DNA from: Escherichia phage HY01
DNA length: 64,000 nucleotides
Sequence record: NC_027349.1
Strand: one strand, 5' to 3'
Shown: positions 9,218 through 38,991 of the stretch, in pieces
Layout of the letters: every line of letters begins with the position of its first letter
How positions within the stretch are numbered: the stretch's first letter is position 1
Translations under genes and position numbers: made by a program
The notes under the pieces: generated by a model
What the model was told of the DNA's origin: nothing
The model's input: only the letters and a program-made list of their open reading frames with translations
Databases searched by the model: none

Positions 9218-9967
9218 ATGGCAAACATTATTCGTTGTAAATTACCAGATGGTGTTCATCGTTTTAAACCATTTACGGTAGAAGATTATCGAGATTTTTT
9301 GTTAGTTCGAAACGATATAGAACATCGGTCACCACAAGAACAAAAAGAAATAATTGCTGATTTAATTGCCGATTATTTTGGAGACTATCCGAAGACTTGG
9401 CAACCATTTATATTTTTACAGGTATTTGTAGGGTCAATAGGCAAAACTAAAGTACCGGTCACATTTGTATGCCCAAAATGTAAAAAAGAAAAGACAGTTC
9501 CATTTGAAATATATCAAAAAGAATTAAAGGAACCTATTTTTGACGTAGCTAATGTTAGAATTAAATTAAATTTTCCTTCTGAGTTTTATGAAAATAAAGC
9601 AAAGATGATTACTGAAAATATTCATTCTGTTCAAGTAGATGAAATATGGTATGATTGGAAGGAAATTAGTGAATCAAGTCAAATAGAACTTGTTGACGCC
9701 ATTGAGATAGAAACATTAGAAAAAATTCTCGATGCAATGAATCCTATTAATTTAACACTGCATATGTCGTGTTGTAATAAGTATGTAAAAAAATACACTG
9801 ATATAGTAGATGTGTTTAAGCTATTAGTTAATCCAGATGAGATATTTACTTTTTATCAAATTAATCACACACTTGTAAAAAGTAATTATAGCTTAAATTC
9901 AATAATGAAAATGATTCCTGCTGAGCGCGGATTCGTATTAAAACTGATTGAGAAGGATAAACAATAA
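9218..9967 (+). CDS. 51: Baseplate hub assembly catalyst gp51
   Basis: 249 aa, conserved position. Confidence 0.8.
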
Positions 9968-11142
9968 TGAGTATGTTGCAACGCCCCGGATATCCAAATC
10001 TCAGCGTTAAATTATTTGAGAGTTATGACGCTTGGAGTAATAATAGATTTGTTGAATTAGCTGCTACTATTACCACATTAACTATGCGGGATTCTCTTTA
10101 TGGTCGAAATGAAGGAATGCTACAGTTTTATGATTCTAAAAATATCCATACAAAAATGGATGGGAACGAAATAATTCAGATTTCTGTAGCTAATGCAAAC
10201 TATATTAATAATGTTAAAACAAGAATTTATGGATGTAAGCATTTTTCTGTATCTGTAGATTCAAAGGGCGATAACATCATTGCTATTGAATTGGGAACTA
10301 TTCATTCCATAGAAAATCTTAAATTTGGCAGACCGTTTTTCTCTGATGTAGGTGAATCTATAAAGGAAATGCTTGGCGTCATTTACCAGGATCGCACATT
10401 ATTAACTCCAGCGATAAATGCTATAAATGCTTATGTTCCTGATATTCCGTGGACTAGTACATTTGAAAACTATTTGTCATATGTCAGAGAAGTTGCTCTA
10501 GCTGTAGGAAGTGACAAATTTGTGTTTGTGTGGCAAGACATCATGGGAGTTAACATGATGGACTATGATATGATGATAAATCAAGAACCATATCCAATGA
10601 TTGTTGGTGAGCCATCTTTAATAGGTCAATTCATCCAAGAATTAAAATATCCATTAGCATATGATTTCGTTTGGTTGACTAAATCGAATCCTCACAAACG
10701 TGACCCAATGAAAAATGCTACTATCTATGCTCATTCATTTTTAGATTCTTCATTGCCAATGATTACTACAGGAAAGGGCGAAAACTCTATTGTAGTGTCA
10801 AGGTCAGGTGCTTATTCTGAAATGACTTATAGGAATGGCTATGAAGAAGCTATTCGTCTTCAAACTATGGCGCAATATGACGGCTATGCTAAATGTTCTA
10901 CTGTCGGTAATTTTAACTTAACCCCTGGCGTTAAAATTATTTTTAATGATAGTAAAAACCAATTTAAAACAGAATTTTACGTTGATGAAGTCATCCATGA
11001 ATTATCAAATAATAATTCAGTAACTCATCTATATATGTTCACTAATGCAACGAAACTGGAAACAATAGACCCAGTTAAGGTTAAAAATGAATTTAAATCT
11101 GATACTACCACTGAAGAAAGTAGTTCTTCCAATAAGCAATAA
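9967..11142 (+). CDS. 27: Baseplate hub protein gp27
   Basis: 391 aa, conserved length and position. Confidence 0.85.
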
Positions 11143-33174: not shown

Positions 33175-34353
33175 TTAAAAATATTTTTTAAAACTCATCA
33201 TAACTTTATCATCAACATCATTATCAATCTGTGCTACAAGATAAGATGACAGTTCTACTTCTTGTGGCGCGGATTGAACATTATCAGAATTAAGGTATTC
33301 ACGAATCCAAGGATACGGGTGTTTAACCGGAGCATCGGTAATTGGGCATGGAAGACCACACTGTTTCATACGAGATACAGTTAAGTAATCAATAAAGCTC
33401 CACATGCTATTTGTATTTAATCCAGGAACATCGCCATCTTTAAATAAATGAACTGCCCAGTCTTTTTCTTGACGGTTAACTTCCATGAAAATATCAACTG
33501 CTTCTTGTTCACACTCTTGAGCAATTTTAACCCATTCATCACCGTCAGTGCCAAGTTGAAGTTGACGAATAATATATTGAGTGCCTTTAAGATGAAGTTG
33601 TTCATCACGTGCAATGAACTTCATAATCTTGGCATTACCTTCCATGATTTCCATGTTCTTATGGAAGTTAAAGGTACATGCGAAAGATACATAAAAACGA
33701 ATAGCTTCCAATGCATTGATTACATGGAGGCAAAGATAAAGAGATTTCATTAGTGCTCGTTTAGCTTCGGCTTCTTGTTTAATAGCTCGATTTAAACGAA
33801 AATCAGCATCAGGAGATTCTTTAGCTAGTTCTACAAATTCTTTAGCATTTTCCCATTCACGGGTCTTCTTAAGAACATCATCGTAATAGCGACCAATGGA
33901 CTCAGCGCGTTTCATAATATCTTCATCTAATACAATCTCATCAAATACCTTTGACGGATCAGTATAAAGATTTCGCATGATATGGGTATATGAACGGCTG
34001 TGAATAGTTTCACTAAAAGTCCATGTAGCAACCCACGTATCAAGGCTTGGGTCTGAAATTAACGACATAAGTACAGCAGACGGTGCACGACCCTGAATGC
34101 TATCCAAAAGTGATTGATACTTCAGGTTATTAGTAAAAATATCTTGCTGATACTGAGGAAGCTTGTTAAATTGTGCAGCATCCATCATTAAGTTTACTTC
34201 TTCAGGACGCCAGAAAAATGACAACTGCTTTTCGGTTAAATCTTCAAAAACTTTATGACGTTGAATATCATAACGCGCAATACCAAGACCTGATCCGAAG
34301 AACATAGGTTCTTTTAAAACATCAACTGGATTTGTATTAAAAACTGTGCTCAT
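33175..34353 (-). CDS. nrdB: Ribonucleotide reductase small subunit NrdB (uninterrupted, no intron)
   Basis: 392-aa continuous ORF MSTVFNTNPVDVL... with ATG start; no intervening sequence. Confidence 0.9.
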   Translation of the reverse strand: MSTVFNTNPVDVLKEPMFFGSGLGIARYDIQRHKVFEDLTEKQLSFFWRPEEVNLMMDAAQFNKLPQYQQDIFTNNLKYQSLLDSIQGRAPSAVLMSLISDPSLDTWVATWTFSETIHSRSYTHIMRNLYTDPSKVFDEIVLDEDIMKRAESIGRYYDDVLKKTREWENAKEFVELAKESPDADFRLNRAIKQEAEAKRALMKSLYLCLHVINALEAIRFYVSFACTFNFHKNMEIMEGNAKIMKFIARDEQLHLKGTQYIIRQLQLGTDGDEWVKIAQECEQEAVDIFMEVNRQEKDWAVHLFKDGDVPGLNTNSMWSFIDYLTVSRMKQCGLPCPITDAPVKHPYPWIREYLNSDNVQSAPQEVELSSYLVAQIDNDVDDKVMMSFKKYF

Positions 34354-34404
34354 AAATTTTCCGCTTAGTTAATAGATAGTGACTCGTCCGTGAGTCAAAT
34401 TATA

Positions 34405-35394
34405 TCATAATTTACAGGATGAACAATCTTCAGCTTTTGGAGTTTCTATTTCATAATCATCAGTACCAGAACCGTCGCGGGTATTATGATAATAGAAATT
34501 TTTTCCGCCAAAATACCAAAAGTACAAAAGGTCATCAATCATTACAGACATTGGAACCTTTCCTTTTGGAAAAATCTGCGGGTCATAATATGTATTCGCT
34601 GAAGCTGATTGACATACCCATTTCAGCATAATAGCTACCTGCGTAAGATAAGGTTTATTACCTTTCTTAGCTAATTTCCATGTATAATCATAGAGGTCTA
34701 TGTTATGTTCAATATTGGGCACGACTTGATTAAAGGAACCCTCTTTTGATTCTTTAACCGAGACTGGTCCACGTGGAGGCTCGATGCCGTTTGTACTGTT
34801 AGAAACTTGGGAAGATGACTCACATGGCATAAGTGCTGATAATGTGCTATTACGGATGCCAAAGAGCTTAAGGTCTTCCCGCAGCTCCGACCAGTCACAA
34901 ACGTATTTTGGAGCTGCGATTTGGTCAATCTTTTTATTGTACCAGTCGATAGGTAATTCGCCTCGAGACCAACGAGTGTCTGAATAATATTCGCAAGGTC
35001 CTTTTTCTTTGGCGAGCTTAATGGATGCTTTAATGAGCCCATACTGTAATCTCTCAAATAGTTCATGTGTTAAATCGTTAGCATCTTCATAAGAAGCAAA
35101 GTTACTTGCCAGCCAAGCTGCATAGTTAGTAACACCTACGCCAAGGTTTCGACGCTTTTTAGCTTTTTCTGCTTCAGGAACTGGATATCCTTGGTAATCC
35201 AAAAGATTATCAAGAGCGCGAACTTGAACTTCTGCCAATTCATTAATTTTATCTTGGTCTTGCCAATCGAAGTTATCTAGCACAAATGCAGAGAGAGTGC
35301 AGAGGCCCACTTCACCTTTGTTTTCAATAACTTGTATTGTTGTATACTCATCATCTTCGTAAAATTCATCTACAAATTCATAATCAATATTCAT
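34405..35394 (-). CDS. nrdA: Ribonucleotide reductase large subunit, C-terminal fragment (NrdA-b)
   Basis: 329-aa ORF with its own ATG; after a ~25-aa non-conserved lead, aligns to class Ia NrdA from GEVGLCTLSAF to the C-terminal CSSCKL. Confidence 0.85.
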   Translation of the reverse strand: MNIDYEFVDEFYEDDEYTTIQVIENKGEVGLCTLSAFVLDNFDWQDQDKINELAEVQVRALDNLLDYQGYPVPEAEKAKKRRNLGVGVTNYAAWLASNFASYEDANDLTHELFERLQYGLIKASIKLAKEKGPCEYYSDTRWSRGELPIDWYNKKIDQIAAPKYVCDWSELREDLKLFGIRNSTLSALMPCESSSQVSNSTNGIEPPRGPVSVKESKEGSFNQVVPNIEHNIDLYDYTWKLAKKGNKPYLTQVAIMLKWVCQSASANTYYDPQIFPKGKVPMSVMIDDLLYFWYFGGKNFYYHNTRDGSGTDDYEIETPKAEDCSSCKL

Positions 35395-36094
35395 TTAATT
35401 CTTCTACCTTTTTTCGAGATATTCCTAGAGCTTTAGATGCTCGATGTATTGATTGATATTCTATACCGTTTATTTTTACAGCAATTAAGTTATGGGGTTT
35501 TAATCCCTTTGGATGAGGTTTACTGACGTATTCTTGATTATCGTTTTCAGAGATATTATCAAGCTTTCGACACTTAAAGCCTTTATGTTGAGACCTTTTG
35601 CCTTTGCATACGGCCGACATTGCCGAAGCATTGAGTGAATGTAGTTCGCAAAATTCTCTTAGGCCTTTATGGATTTCTTCATGACCGTCCGGGAAAGTAA
35701 ATACCCAAGTTGTTTGAAGTTTTTCTCTATGCTCGTCAGTTACCGGAATACCTTTGTTCCAAGCTGGTTTGCCTTTATTATTTTCAGATACAGAAATAGC
35801 CAATTTTCTTCTAAGCCACCCATGGCGTTTATTGGTGTTCTTTCGTTCAATATTATCTTCAGAATAAACACACATCATATTAGCGGCAAATACCAATTTA
35901 TGATTATCTGGATATATCTTTACTAATAATTGATGAGCTATGTAATGCTCTTCGGGTGTCAAATCTACCAGGTTTTCCTTTGTATCAGAACCACCAATAC
36001 ACAGAGGTATAATATGGTGTGATTCGGTATAGCAATCTAATTTTCTGTTCTTAGCTTTAGAAATAAGGTTATTGTAAATTTTAGAATAATCCAT
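35384..36094 (-). CDS. HNH homing endonuclease (MobE-like) inserted within nrdA
   Basis: 236 aa; HNH motif ESHHIIPLCIGGSDTKENLVDLTPEEHYIAH; GAGGA Shine-Dalgarno; stop overlaps the NrdA-b start by 11 nt. Confidence 0.85.
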   Translation of the reverse strand: MDYSKIYNNLISKAKNRKLDCYTESHHIIPLCIGGSDTKENLVDLTPEEHYIAHQLLVKIYPDNHKLVFAANMMCVYSEDNIERKNTNKRHGWLRRKLAISVSENNKGKPAWNKGIPVTDEHREKLQTTWVFTFPDGHEEIHKGLREFCELHSLNASAMSAVCKGKRSQHKGFKCRKLDNISENDNQEYVSKPHPKGLKPHNLIAVKINGIEYQSIHRASKALGISRKKVEELNEY

Positions 36095-36139
36095 AACTTT
36101 TCCTCTTGTTATGGATTATTTATTAACGGTCTGTGTACT

Positions 36140-37573
36140 TTATTTGCTTTGAATTATACCGCCAGGATTAGCTTCATAAAACTTAGCTACATCCGACTTC
36201 TTAATTTTGATTAAACGGGTTTGTTGGCTATTCACATCATTTGTTGGAATAGCAATTTCACAGCACAAATTACTCTGACGAATAGGTGCTTTTTCACGAA
36301 TAAACGGAGTATAGTTATTCGTATTATCAATGAACTGCACATAAATCCTTGCTGTTCCTGATCGTTCAGTCATGAGTAGTTCAAACAGTTCACGTGCTTT
36401 AATACGCTTTTTACGAATATTAGGGTCTTTTTCTGCGGCTTCGTATAATTCACGGAAACGGTCTTGGTCTTTAAAATAAGAATAATAAAGCTCGCCACCC
36501 ATTTCATGCGGACTGAACAAAGTAATGTAGTCGTTCTTTCCAAAACGTTCCATCATCAAATCATTCAGCTGGACGCCATAATCCATATGACGGATACGGT
36601 TTTCTTCTACGCCTTTGTTATTTTTCAAAACGAGAAGATTTTCAACTTCCAAATGCCAAATAGGATAATAAGCAGTAGCAGCGCCGCCACGAATTCCGCC
36701 CTGTGAACACGATTTAACAGCAGTCTGAAAATGTTTCCAAAAAGGAATAACACCAGTATGACGCACTTCACCTGTGCCAATCTTAGAACCTTCGGCACGA
36801 ATCATACCAACGTTAATACCAATTCCAGCGCGTTTGGAGATATATTCAACAATTGAAGCAGAAGCCTTATTGATAGACTTCAGCGAATCACCTGCCTCAA
36901 TAACAACACATGAACTAAACTGCCGAGTTGGAGTACGACAACCAGCCATAATAGGAGTTGGCAATGAAATCTGTCGAGTAGATACTGCTTCATAAAAACG
37001 AATAACATGTTTTAATCTATCAACAGGTTCATCTTGATGCAATGCCATTCCAATAGTCATAAATGCAAACTGTGGAGTTTCATAAATTTGACCGGTGGTT
37101 TTATCTTTAACTAGATATTTTTCTTTTAATTGCATCGCCCCGGAATAAGTAAATTCCATATCCCGCTCGTGCTTAATTTTTGATTCTAAAAATGTAATTT
37201 CTTCTGCTGAATATTTTGACAACAGTTCAGGGTCGTATTTACCTTCATTTACACAGTAAGAAATATGGTCAATAAATGAACGTGGTTCATACTGACCGTA
37301 AACATGCTTACGAAGAGCGAACATTAAACAGCGCGCAGCTACGTATTGATAATCAGGCTCTTCAACTGAAATAGAATTCGCAGCAGCCTTAATTACAATA
37401 GTTTGAATGTCATCAGTGGTCATTCCATCACGGAGATATGATTTAATATTTTCATATAATTCATAAGGATCTACAGATGTTCCTTCAGCTGCCCAAGATA
37501 AAACTTTAATAATTTTTTGCGGGTCAAAGCTTTGAGAAACACCACTACTTTTGATAACATTAATTAATTGCAT
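36140..37573 (-). CDS. nrdA: Ribonucleotide reductase large subunit, N-terminal fragment (NrdA-a)
   Basis: 477-aa ORF; aligns to NrdA through the active-site loop SNLCCEIAIPTNDVNS, then ~28 aa of unrelated tail before the stop. Confidence 0.85.
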   Translation of the reverse strand: MQLINVIKSSGVSQSFDPQKIIKVLSWAAEGTSVDPYELYENIKSYLRDGMTTDDIQTIVIKAAANSISVEEPDYQYVAARCLMFALRKHVYGQYEPRSFIDHISYCVNEGKYDPELLSKYSAEEITFLESKIKHERDMEFTYSGAMQLKEKYLVKDKTTGQIYETPQFAFMTIGMALHQDEPVDRLKHVIRFYEAVSTRQISLPTPIMAGCRTPTRQFSSCVVIEAGDSLKSINKASASIVEYISKRAGIGINVGMIRAEGSKIGTGEVRHTGVIPFWKHFQTAVKSCSQGGIRGGAATAYYPIWHLEVENLLVLKNNKGVEENRIRHMDYGVQLNDLMMERFGKNDYITLFSPHEMGGELYYSYFKDQDRFRELYEAAEKDPNIRKKRIKARELFELLMTERSGTARIYVQFIDNTNNYTPFIREKAPIRQSNLCCEIAIPTNDVNSQQTRLIKIKKSDVAKFYEANPGGIIQSK

Positions 37574-38130: not shown

Positions 38131-38991
38131 TTACACCGCCATTTTTCCTTTAATAGGAGGGTGAGATACATAGTTGTTAAGAACAAAATTATGCGGCTTT
38201 GCGAATTGACTCAACCAAAATACCTGTGATTCTGTGTCCCATTCATCAAATTCATCTGGAAATTTTAATTGTAATTCGCATAAATCCATAGGTTCACGAC
38301 GTAAAATTTCTTTACATTGTTCTACGTGATTCATATAGATATGAGTATTACCACCAGAAAATATCAAATCTCCTGGAATAAGATTACACATCTTAGCTAC
38401 AATATGAACTAATGCAGCATATGATGCAATGTTGAATGGCAAGCCCAAGAACACGTCAACACTTCTTTGATACCACTGCAAATCCAAATAGCCATTACGC
38501 ACATTAAACTGATAGAACATATGACAAGGCGGTAATGCCATATATTTAAGTTCAGCTGGATTCCATGCAGAAACAATTTGACGCCTATCATTCGGCAGTT
38601 TTTTAATACGATCAATAACTTCTATAATTTGGTCTACACCGCCAAAATCACGCCATTGTTTTCCATAAATTGGACCAAGTTCACCACTATGATATCCTAA
38701 ATCTTTTGCTTGATTTTCGTAATTTTCATCCCAGACTGTTTTGCCTTGAATTAATGAATCATGTTGAATTAATCGTAAATCATTGACATTTGTGCTTCCC
38801 GATAAAAACCATATTAGCTCAGCAATGCAAGCTTTCCAGGCGAGCTTCTTAGTTGTTACTGCAGGAAAACCTTTAGTTAAATCCCAGCGTAATTTAGTAC
38901 CGAACAAAGCAATTGTTCCTGTGCCCGTTCGGTCATCGGTTTCATAGCCATTTTCAAAAATGTCTTTAATTAAATCTTGGTATTGTTTCAT
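38131..38991 (-). CDS. td: Thymidylate synthase (uninterrupted, no intron)
   Basis: 286-aa continuous ORF with catalytic PCH motif (ALPPCHMFYQF); no intron. Confidence 0.95.
   Translation of the reverse strand: MKQYQDLIKDIFENGYETDDRTGTGTIALFGTKLRWDLTKGFPAVTTKKLAWKACIAELIWFLSGSTNVNDLRLIQHDSLIQGKTVWDENYENQAKDLGYHSGELGPIYGKQWRDFGGVDQIIEVIDRIKKLPNDRRQIVSAWNPAELKYMALPPCHMFYQFNVRNGYLDLQWYQRSVDVFLGLPFNIASYAALVHIVAKMCNLIPGDLIFSGGNTHIYMNHVEQCKEILRREPMDLCELQLKFPDEFDEWDTESQVFWLSQFAKPHNFVLNNYVSHPPIKGKMAV

Follow-up and report, generated by a model that had tools for sequence, protein, structure and literature searches.

A homing-endonuclease cassette with tail-encoding ends splits the nrdA gene of the T-even coliphage PEC04 as in phage Aeh1

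The window analysed here, a 64,000-nt stretch of Escherichia phage HY01 (NC_027349.1), is 100% identical to GenBank KR233165 (Escherichia phage PEC04, Tequatrovirus hy01), and we use the name PEC04 for its sequence in all comparisons; positions are in whole-window numbering. It contains an nrdA gene, encoding the alpha subunit of a class Ia ribonucleotide reductase (RNR), that is divided into two open reading frames (ORFs) by the endonuclease gene mobE. In the six-frame ORF list every ORF of the locus lies on the minus strand, as do the features described below. The upstream ORF, nrdA-a (36140..37573), encodes 477 aa, which the ORF list, Pfam and the match to E. coli R1 resolve into 449 N-terminal NrdA residues and a 28-residue tail that ends at a stop codon. 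The mobE gene (35384..36094), a free-standing homing-endonuclease gene, encodes a 236-aa protein whose HNH nuclease domain is N-terminal and whose NUMOD / I-HmuI-like DNA-binding modules are C-terminal, and nrdA-b (34405..35394) encodes 329 aa, made up of a 26-residue N-terminal tail and the C-terminal 303 RNR alpha residues. Directly downstream, across a 51-bp spacer (34354-34404), is the intron-less nrdB (33175..34353), encoding the 392-aa RNR small subunit according to the ORF list and the GenBank annotation. The original prediction, made from the letters alone, had given these positions for the three ORFs and the 236-aa length of the HNH protein, and the ORF list agrees with it to the base. 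The mobE ATG is indeed preceded by its own Shine-Dalgarno sequence (AAGAGGA), and the 3' end of mobE overlaps the first 11 nt of nrdA-b (35384-35394). The prediction was also correct that the nrdA-nrdB spacer leaves no room for a mobE gene at an intergenic position; because the insert-less phage PP01 has the same spacer, its shortness is a property of the lineage.

The hallmarks of a class Ia NrdA are all present, spread over the two ORFs: an ATP-cone, an all-alpha domain, a ten-stranded barrel and the catalytic residues. By Pfam, nrdA-a contains the first two of these domains together with positions 1-221 of the barrel profile, which make up its first half, and nrdA-b matches the profile from position 219 to 523. 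The prediction had proposed mapping the break by alignment of both fragments to E. coli NrdA. In alignments with the R1 crystal-structure sequences, NrdA-a covers R1 6-455 with its residues 5-450, and NrdA-b covers R1 453-751 with its residues 23-323. This puts the break at R1 residue ~454, within the loop that lies between the beta-strands of C439 and C462 (E. coli numbering). NrdA-a carries N435, C437 and E439 (R1 N437, C439 and E441) as well as C222 (C225), and NrdA-b carries C32 (C462), the tyrosine pair equivalent to Y730/Y731 and a C-terminal CxxC cysteine pair. The expectation that the break parts the Asn/Cys/Glu catalytic loop from the redox cysteine and the C-terminal tail was thus right as far as it went, and incomplete in that the two members of the C225/C462 redox pair are separated as well. 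The canonical protein is a single chain, as had been assumed: the NrdA proteins of PP01 and T4 are both undivided and 754 aa long.

Alignment to the PP01 allele, whose flanks are ~97% identical to those of the window, gives a net insertion of 904 nt. The insert itself is a 910-nt cassette (35317-36226, minus strand) consisting of the codons of the upstream tail, a 45-nt spacer, mobE and the 26 codons of the downstream tail. PP01 and T4 read NDVNS-PDA-EIGLCTLSAF across the site; the window reads NDVNS followed by QQTRLIKIKKSDVAKFYEANPGGIIQSK and a stop and, after mobE, MNIDYEFVDEFYEDDEYTTIQVIENK followed by GEVGLCTLSAF. The first of these peptides, tail-a, is specified by 28 cassette-borne codons (36143..36226) at the 5' end of the cassette, with a net charge of +4 and an isoelectric point (pI) of 10.0. 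The second, tail-b, comprises the first 26 codons of nrdA-b (35317..35394) at the 3' end, has a net charge of -8 and a pI of 4.05, and gives NrdA-b its start, MNIDYEFVDEFYEDDEYTT. In the insert-less nrdA of PP01 and T4, the DNA reads AATAGT up to the insertion point and CCTGATGCTGAAATTGGATTGTGT from it onwards.

The two edges of the cassette differ in character. The 5' boundary, AGY/CAA (36226), is sharp in seven carriers, with host-specific polymorphisms that reach up to 15 nt from it. On the 3' side, the first 60 nt of nrdA downstream of the cassette (35257..35316), which encode GEVGLCTLSAF and the residues that follow, are hypervariable and mosaic among carriers. In the first ~40-60 nt, 11 of 39 positions depart from insert-less alleles, nearly always without changing the amino acid (8-10 synonymous and 0-1 non-synonymous differences). 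FL33, BYEP01 and F2 share ACC CTT AGC here, and Manna has the T4-like ACT CTC TCT. We read this mosaic as co-conversion tracts of varying length, and the altered stretch is possibly the endonuclease target site as changed in carriers.

A frameshift or a chimeric assembly within a contiguous nrdA, which the original prediction had itself raised as the outcome that would undo it, has next to no chance of explaining these features, because the same architecture recurs in independent records. The whole arrangement is present in 31 phage records at >=80% coverage, from different laboratories and countries; the MobE search described below finds it in 33 records, and it appears again in eight independent metagenome assemblies. 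Several hundred close relatives are without the insert. Two carriers, IME537 and 236Ecol005PP, match the arrangement in two pieces and have extra annotated genes there, for a second homing endonuclease and a DNA adenine methylase.

The Aeromonas phage Aeh1, to which the prediction had compared this locus, reportedly has its ribonucleotide reductase in the 'genes-in-pieces' form nrdA-a/mobE/nrdA-b, as described by Friedrich et al. in 2007. The comparison proved apt. The window MobE is 48% identical to Aeh1 MobE over its full length (229 aa, E 3e-61), and in a collection of 50,697 phage records the Aeh1 and coliphage MobE proteins are reciprocal best full-length relatives. By contrast, the similarity to T4 MobE (46% identity over 127 aa, E 5e-32) is confined to the nuclease domain. 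In Pfam, MobE matches PF22083 at 32.2 bits, above the cutoff, and the HNH model with an E-value of 0.0035, below that model's cutoff. The geometry of the two loci agrees closely, with NrdA-a of 477 aa in PEC04 and 473 aa in Aeh1, MobE of 236 and 237 aa, NrdA-b of 329 and 323 aa, spacers of 45 and 46 nt, and mobE/nrdA-b overlaps of 11 and 14 nt. The break point is also shared, at R1 ~454 between C439 and C462, and nrdB lies directly downstream in both.

The tails had been described at the outset as unrelated residues, and this part of the prediction does not stand: the Aeh1 tails are their homologues, and ten lineages conserve them. In tail-a, LIKIKKSDVAKF aligns with Aeh1 LFKVKKSEVDKF, a score reached by 3 of 20000 composition-preserving shuffles, and in tail-b EFYEDDEYTT aligns with Aeh1 EVYEDEEYTT, a score reached by none of 20000. 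The isoelectric points correspond as well, at 10.0 and 9.9 for the basic C-terminal tail-a and 4.05 in both phages for the acidic N-terminal tail-b. At the level of sequence, every defining feature of the Aeh1 'genes-in-pieces' reductase that can be examined there is present in PEC04. The two systems differ in other respects. The host clades are Cinqassovirus for Aeh1 and the Tevenvirinae coliphages for PEC04, with NrdA only 51-58% identical, and the PEC04 nrd operon is at the T4-like td-nrdA-nrdB position whereas that of Aeh1 is near nrdD. The coliphage cassette, with 99.7-100% identity between genera, is demonstrably in the course of spreading, and PEC04 is known from sequence where Aeh1 is known from biochemistry.

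The MobE search of the phage collection returned 33 records, which by count amount to 27 distinct phages, with E. coli, Shigella, Yersinia and Salmonella as hosts. Cultured carriers are thus 27 Tequatrovirus and Mosigvirus phages, to which eight metagenomic lineages can be added, and the insertion site is always the same. The metagenomic lineages come from a comparison of PEC04 MobE with 5.8 billion proteins, which yielded a graded series of full-length relatives that are 51-67% identical. All eight of the relatives whose context was examined are flanked by tail-bearing nrdA fragments in a T4-like td-nrdA-nrdB neighbourhood. Where the contig permits, the upstream fragments are ~474-485 aa and the downstream fragments ~324-329 aa long; a contig end cuts one fragment in two of the loci, the downstream one in L094 and the upstream one in L099. 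Two other searches added little: a scan of IMG/VR with the MobE alignment recovered Aeh1 and no coliphage-type cassette, most of its matches sharing only the HNH domain and lying downstream of an intact nrdA, and a protein search with a 70-aa tail-b query found one fragment only.

Across the ten lineages formed by PEC04, Aeh1 and the eight metagenomic cassettes, the tails are at least as well conserved as the enzyme to which they are attached. The tail-a core, L[IVF]K[IV][KR]Kx[DE][IV]xxF, has a mean identity of 68% and the tail-b motif ED[DE]EYTT is invariant, compared with a mean of 54% for MobE and 64-65% for the adjacent NrdA body. The opposed net charges are kept, with tail-a between +4 and +7 and tail-b between -7 and -13, as are the in-frame stop after tail-a and the ATG of nrdA-b. 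The codons, on the other hand, have drifted extensively: six Leu codons occur at one position, four Ser codons at another and four Thr codons at a third, and codon pairs that differ synonymously number 182 and 203 in the two tail cores, those that differ non-synonymously 175 and 199. Since the amino acids are kept while the codons change, the tails are translated and selected as peptides rather than as RNA structure.

This pattern bears directly on whether the insert might be a group I intron with an HNH ORF, in which case splicing would restore a contiguous nrdA mRNA and the tails would be intron RNA that happens to be read through. Phage nrd and td genes, T4 td and nrdB among them, often contain group I introns that carry a homing-endonuclease gene. 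The two nrdA frames differ by +1 and 904 nt is 1 modulo 3, so that removal of the insert would give an in-frame 754-aa product, and the ~200 nt of the insert outside the mobE ORF could just accommodate a catalytic core. The Rfam group I model (RF00028) has no match in the window (E <= 10) or in nine homologous cassettes (E <= 1), a search insensitive enough to miss the T4 td intron, and no Rfam family reaches its gathering threshold anywhere in the 64-kb window. We do not rely on these negatives because the control on T4 was weak: the nrdB intron scored 35.7 bits against a gathering score of 50, and the ORF-containing td intron was missed. The evidence that we regard as decisive against an intron is instead of three kinds, namely the conservation of the flanks as protein, with charge polarity maintained while codons drift; the retention of the tail-a stop and the nrdA-b start in every lineage; and the detection of the Aeh1 tails by mass spectrometry in mature, separate proteins (PMC3045599). 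An intron is thus a quite improbable account of the locus.

The missed td intron, which contains I-TevI, lies around 9695-10432 of the T4 piece 134000-146000 and escaped even a permissive E-value. It is a caution for intron screens of phage genomes in general.

The tails could also be the halves of a split intein, in which case protein trans-splicing would ligate NrdA-a to NrdA-b. There is a precedent close at hand, since split inteins with an intervening homing-endonuclease gene fracture nrdA 13 codons upstream in uncultured phages (L030 and L033; Dassa et al., PMC2677866), and a degenerate-intein origin was raised as a possibility for the Aeh1 tails by Crona et al. (PMC3045599). In these contigs, L030 (76-2501) and L033 (16-2457), and in five others from IMG/VR (L034-L036, L039 and L041), nrdA is split at NLC/C by an N-half beginning CVTGDT and a C-half ending ILVHN/CE. 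The gene between the halves encodes an HNH protein in L030 and a GIY-YIG protein in L033, and a further MobE-like HNH gene lies downstream of nrdA. The PEC04 tails are, however, of a different kind. They total 54 residues (28 + 26) against ~100 (N) and ~33 (C) in L030/L033; tail-a starts with Q rather than Cys or Ser, and tail-b ends IENK/G, without the His-Asn and Cys/Ser/Thr of a C-terminal splice junction. Neither half has a Hint or intein Pfam family, the tails have no significant similarity to the L030/L033 intein halves, and the Aeh1 tails persist in mature separate proteins. Trans-splicing in PEC04 is accordingly very improbable, more so than an intron would be. An apparent BLAST extension of NrdA-a into the L030 N-intein was rejected as an out-of-register alignment of NrdA with intein residues; comparisons of the tails by themselves were not significant.

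A weaker connection to inteins would be one of descent. The tails might be vestiges of a split intein, left when a 'fractured' nrdA lost its splicing chemistry and kept the strands that dock the fragments, with ligation giving way to non-covalent assembly. We consider this unlikely; if true, a single evolutionary pathway would lead through both inteins and tail-mediated 'genes in pieces'. The two kinds of element do meet in lineage L096 (607-2451), which has a complete intein (PT-HINT / Intein_splicing matches; ILVHN/CLEIAIPT) at the catalytic NLC/C site and a MobE cassette 13 codons downstream of it, placing two selfish elements in one active-site loop.

The spacer between the nrdA-a stop and the mobE start (36095..36139, 45 nt) holds a GTACAC motif, the late-promoter-like sequence AATAAATA (36117-36124) and the mobE Shine-Dalgarno sequence. 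It is overlapped by a predicted RNA hairpin (36085..36120) with a perfect 13-bp stem, formed by a 5' arm at 36108-36120 and a 3' arm at 36085-36097. The folding energy is -13.4 kcal/mol (z = -5.6), and none of 200 shuffles folds as well. In the stem, sequence from upstream is paired with the mobE AUG and its first four codons; the Shine-Dalgarno is left in the loop, and AATAAATA overlaps the 5' arm. Six further lineages retain the hairpin and show double compensatory changes in it at -2, +3 and +5 from the A of the AUG (for example, GTCCAT/ATGGAC in one lineage and GTTCAT/ATGAAC in another), and an ATAAATA motif is found at the same place in the eight metagenomic cassettes, so that in all lineages it lies in the 5' arm of the hairpin. 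Aeh1, L094 and L095 have a longer hairpin that buries the Shine-Dalgarno instead of the AUG. In Aeh1, a hairpin that sequesters the ribosome-binding site, combined with a late promoter, blocks translation on early/middle polycistronic RNA and allows it on late transcripts (PMC2988022). By analogy, PEC04 would use its late-promoter-like motif in the same way.

Among seven coliphage cassettes the spacer is identical in six. The exception, BYEP01, has a 48-nt spacer with a 3-nt TAA duplication just upstream of the late-promoter-like motif.

Separately from the hairpin, every lineage except Aeh1, nine in all, has a GTACA(C/T) or GTGCAT motif at most a few bases from the nrdA-a stop (GTACAC at 36133-36138 in the window). 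It persists there though the spacer varies in sequence and from 38 to 81 nt in length, and Aeh1 has GTGTAC inside the hairpin loop. The motif may serve as a processing site or an operator, or it may belong to the endonuclease target.

The original prediction held that a homing-endonuclease gene splits nrdA, and this is upheld; as a description of a one-off break it falls short, since the cassette belongs to a currently mobile family. The cassettes of PEC04 (Tequatrovirus) and ZQ3 (Mosigvirus) are 99.7-100% identical, whereas the nrdA coding flanks are only 77-78% identical. Two variants of mobE exist, ~28% divergent in a central block of ~250 nt (35523..35773, about residues 108-190) and in that block only, the cassettes being >=99% identical elsewhere (PEC04 compared with FL33, JM17 and F2), and each variant is found in both host backgrounds. 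With near-identical cassettes in divergent hosts and both variants in both backgrounds, the cassette tree disagrees with the host-gene tree. This conflict, taken with the one-sided mosaic tracts of the 3' flank, is the trace that repeated homing by double-strand-break repair would leave, and indicates that homing was recent.

The confinement of the mobE differences looks like module exchange in the DNA-binding part of the endonuclease. The central block overlaps the I-HmuI NUMOD-like region, and F2 is a hybrid with a shorter swapped segment. F2 (Tequatrovirus efftwo) is unusual in its flanks as well: its nrdA coding flanks are ~95-98% identical to those of the Mosigvirus ZQ3 and only ~77-80% to those of PEC04, and its nrd region is therefore of Mosigvirus type despite the genus assignment. 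We also considered an extra nucleotide-level constraint on tail-a and the spacer, which are 100% identical between cassettes that differ by 11% in mobE, and rejected it because the mobE divergence is confined to the swapped block and the rest of the cassette is equally invariant.

Taken together, these observations suggest a model, to which we assign a probability of roughly 85%, in which a mobile cassette homed into the nrdA loop and the enzyme now functions in pieces. nrdA would be repaired by neither RNA nor protein splicing. NrdA-a, with its basic tail end, and NrdA-b, with its acidic tail start, would instead be translated separately from the early/middle nrd transcript and dock non-covalently. 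On the long transcripts the hairpin would bury the mobE start codon and keep the gene silent; late transcripts from the promoter-like motif would start a few bases further downstream, where the stem cannot form, so that MobE would be made late. MobE would then cut insert-less nrdA alleles of co-infecting phages, and repair would copy in the whole cassette with a variable stretch of downstream nrdA.

Several points weigh against this model. The ribosome-binding site of nrdA-b is weak (AAGG 13 nt upstream and GAAGAA 6 nt upstream), and RNA folding at the nrdA-b start gave no fold that would aid it. The hairpin is invariant within the coliphage cassettes, so that its covariation rests on seven lineages, and AATAAATA matches the T4 late-promoter consensus TATAAATA at only seven of eight positions. 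Reductase activity, the absence of splicing, cleavage by MobE and the site of transcription initiation are expectations carried over from Aeh1, whose MobE is only 48% identical. Finally, T4 nrdA is dispensable in laboratory hosts, and for that reason intact ORFs alone are no proof of function.

The last point opens the way to a further explanation, in which the insertion inactivated nrdA, the halves are recent and still undecayed pseudogene fragments, and the phage relies on the host RNR. Beyond the non-essentiality of T4 nrdA in standard hosts, this explanation can appeal to the youth of the coliphage cassette, whose 99.7-100% identity across genera may have left too little time for decay, and to the fact that the case for PEC04 NrdA activity is made by analogy with Aeh1. 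The association of the cassette with split nrdA is nevertheless old, because the MobE proteins of the lineages are only 43-73% identical to one another. The halves are intact in seven coliphages, in Aeh1 and, as far as contigs reach, in the eight metagenomic lineages, with every catalytic residue retained. A dead gene would have no use for tails, and yet the tail cores are conserved at least as well as the enzyme body and have undergone many synonymous changes, as under purifying selection. In Aeh1 the split enzyme has wild-type specific activity, NrdA-a and NrdA-b each arise by independent translation, and deletion of the tails lowers activity ~2000-fold and keeps the (alpha-a/alpha-b)2 complex and the holoenzyme from assembling (PMC3045599). 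Inactivation is unlikely on this evidence, if less so than splicing of either kind, and we favour a functional, tail-assembled enzyme.

How far this arrangement was already on record can be judged from four related systems. T4 mobA and the gene 60 'hop' translational-bypass cassette, reportedly described by Bonocora et al. in 2011, are similar to the PEC04 locus in that an HNH Mob-family gene travels with flanks that neutralise its insertion into an essential enzyme gene, leaving the host gene as two ORFs with cassette-derived terminal extensions. They differ in that the host gene encodes a topoisomerase and a 50-nt ribosomal bypass is used, of which none is evident in PEC04. T4 mobE shares the nrd neighbourhood and the nuclease domain. 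Unlike PEC04 mobE, it is intergenic, between nrdA and nrdB, is annotated as 141 aa, splits no gene and has an unrelated C-terminal DNA-binding half. The fractured nrdA with a split intein (PMC2677866) likewise has two nrdA ORFs, parted near the same active-site region by a free-standing homing-endonuclease gene. It is distinguished by recognisable intein halves and presumed trans-splicing, whereas the PEC04 tails lack intein catalytic residues and are too short. The fourth is described in a 2022 preprint on mobA/hop, which mentions 'several others' with conserved tails and 'MobE_split' insertions (bioRxiv 10.1101/2022.08.31.505936); PEC04 is most likely a member of that set. The preprint offers a remark and a supplementary endonuclease alignment, with a main text that gives no boundaries, cross-genus identity, co-conversion, tail selection or hairpin.

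The Aeh1 tails had no database match in 2010 (PMC3045599). The genome papers of three sets of carriers (vB_EcoM_112, fPS-2/fPS-90 and UFV-AREG1) leave the split nrdA unmentioned, and in the open-access literature we found no paper that pairs nrdA-a/nrdA-b with coliphages. Thus, the existence of such cases and the idea of tails as a general neutralising strategy are already on record, and what is new here are the exact boundaries, the cross-genus near-identity, the co-conversion of the 3' flank, the quantitative evidence for selection on the tail peptides and the covariation of the hairpin.

These findings have implications for how the Aeh1 split reductase is viewed, since it has hitherto been treated as a singular accident, a 'transposition-like event'. 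An endonuclease gene, its translational control and both assembly tails instead form one portable unit, found always at the same nrdA codon and now moving between genera of T-even coliphages. This supports the idea that cassette-borne docking peptides, in addition to introns and inteins, give a selfish endonuclease gene a third way to occupy an essential gene without destroying it. PEC04-like carriers and 98%-identical insert-less phages such as PP01 together provide a tractable E. coli test system. For annotation, two NrdA coding sequences that flank a homing endonuclease in Tequatrovirus or Mosigvirus are best treated as one functional split gene and not as a pseudogene; nothing in this analysis indicates an intron. 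A further possible interest of the tails (L[IV]K[IV][KR]KxD[VI]xxF and ED[DE]EYTT) is their use as small natural heterodimerisation tags.

Two observations concern the neighbouring genes. In the window, td (38131-38991) and nrdB (33175-34353) are each an uninterrupted single ORF, and T4 has group I introns in both. The called thymidylate synthases, products of the td gene upstream of nrdA, are 410-412 aa long in L094 (1-920) and L095 (1-645), compared with 286 aa in the window, which suggests an insertion or fusion in td in these two lineages.

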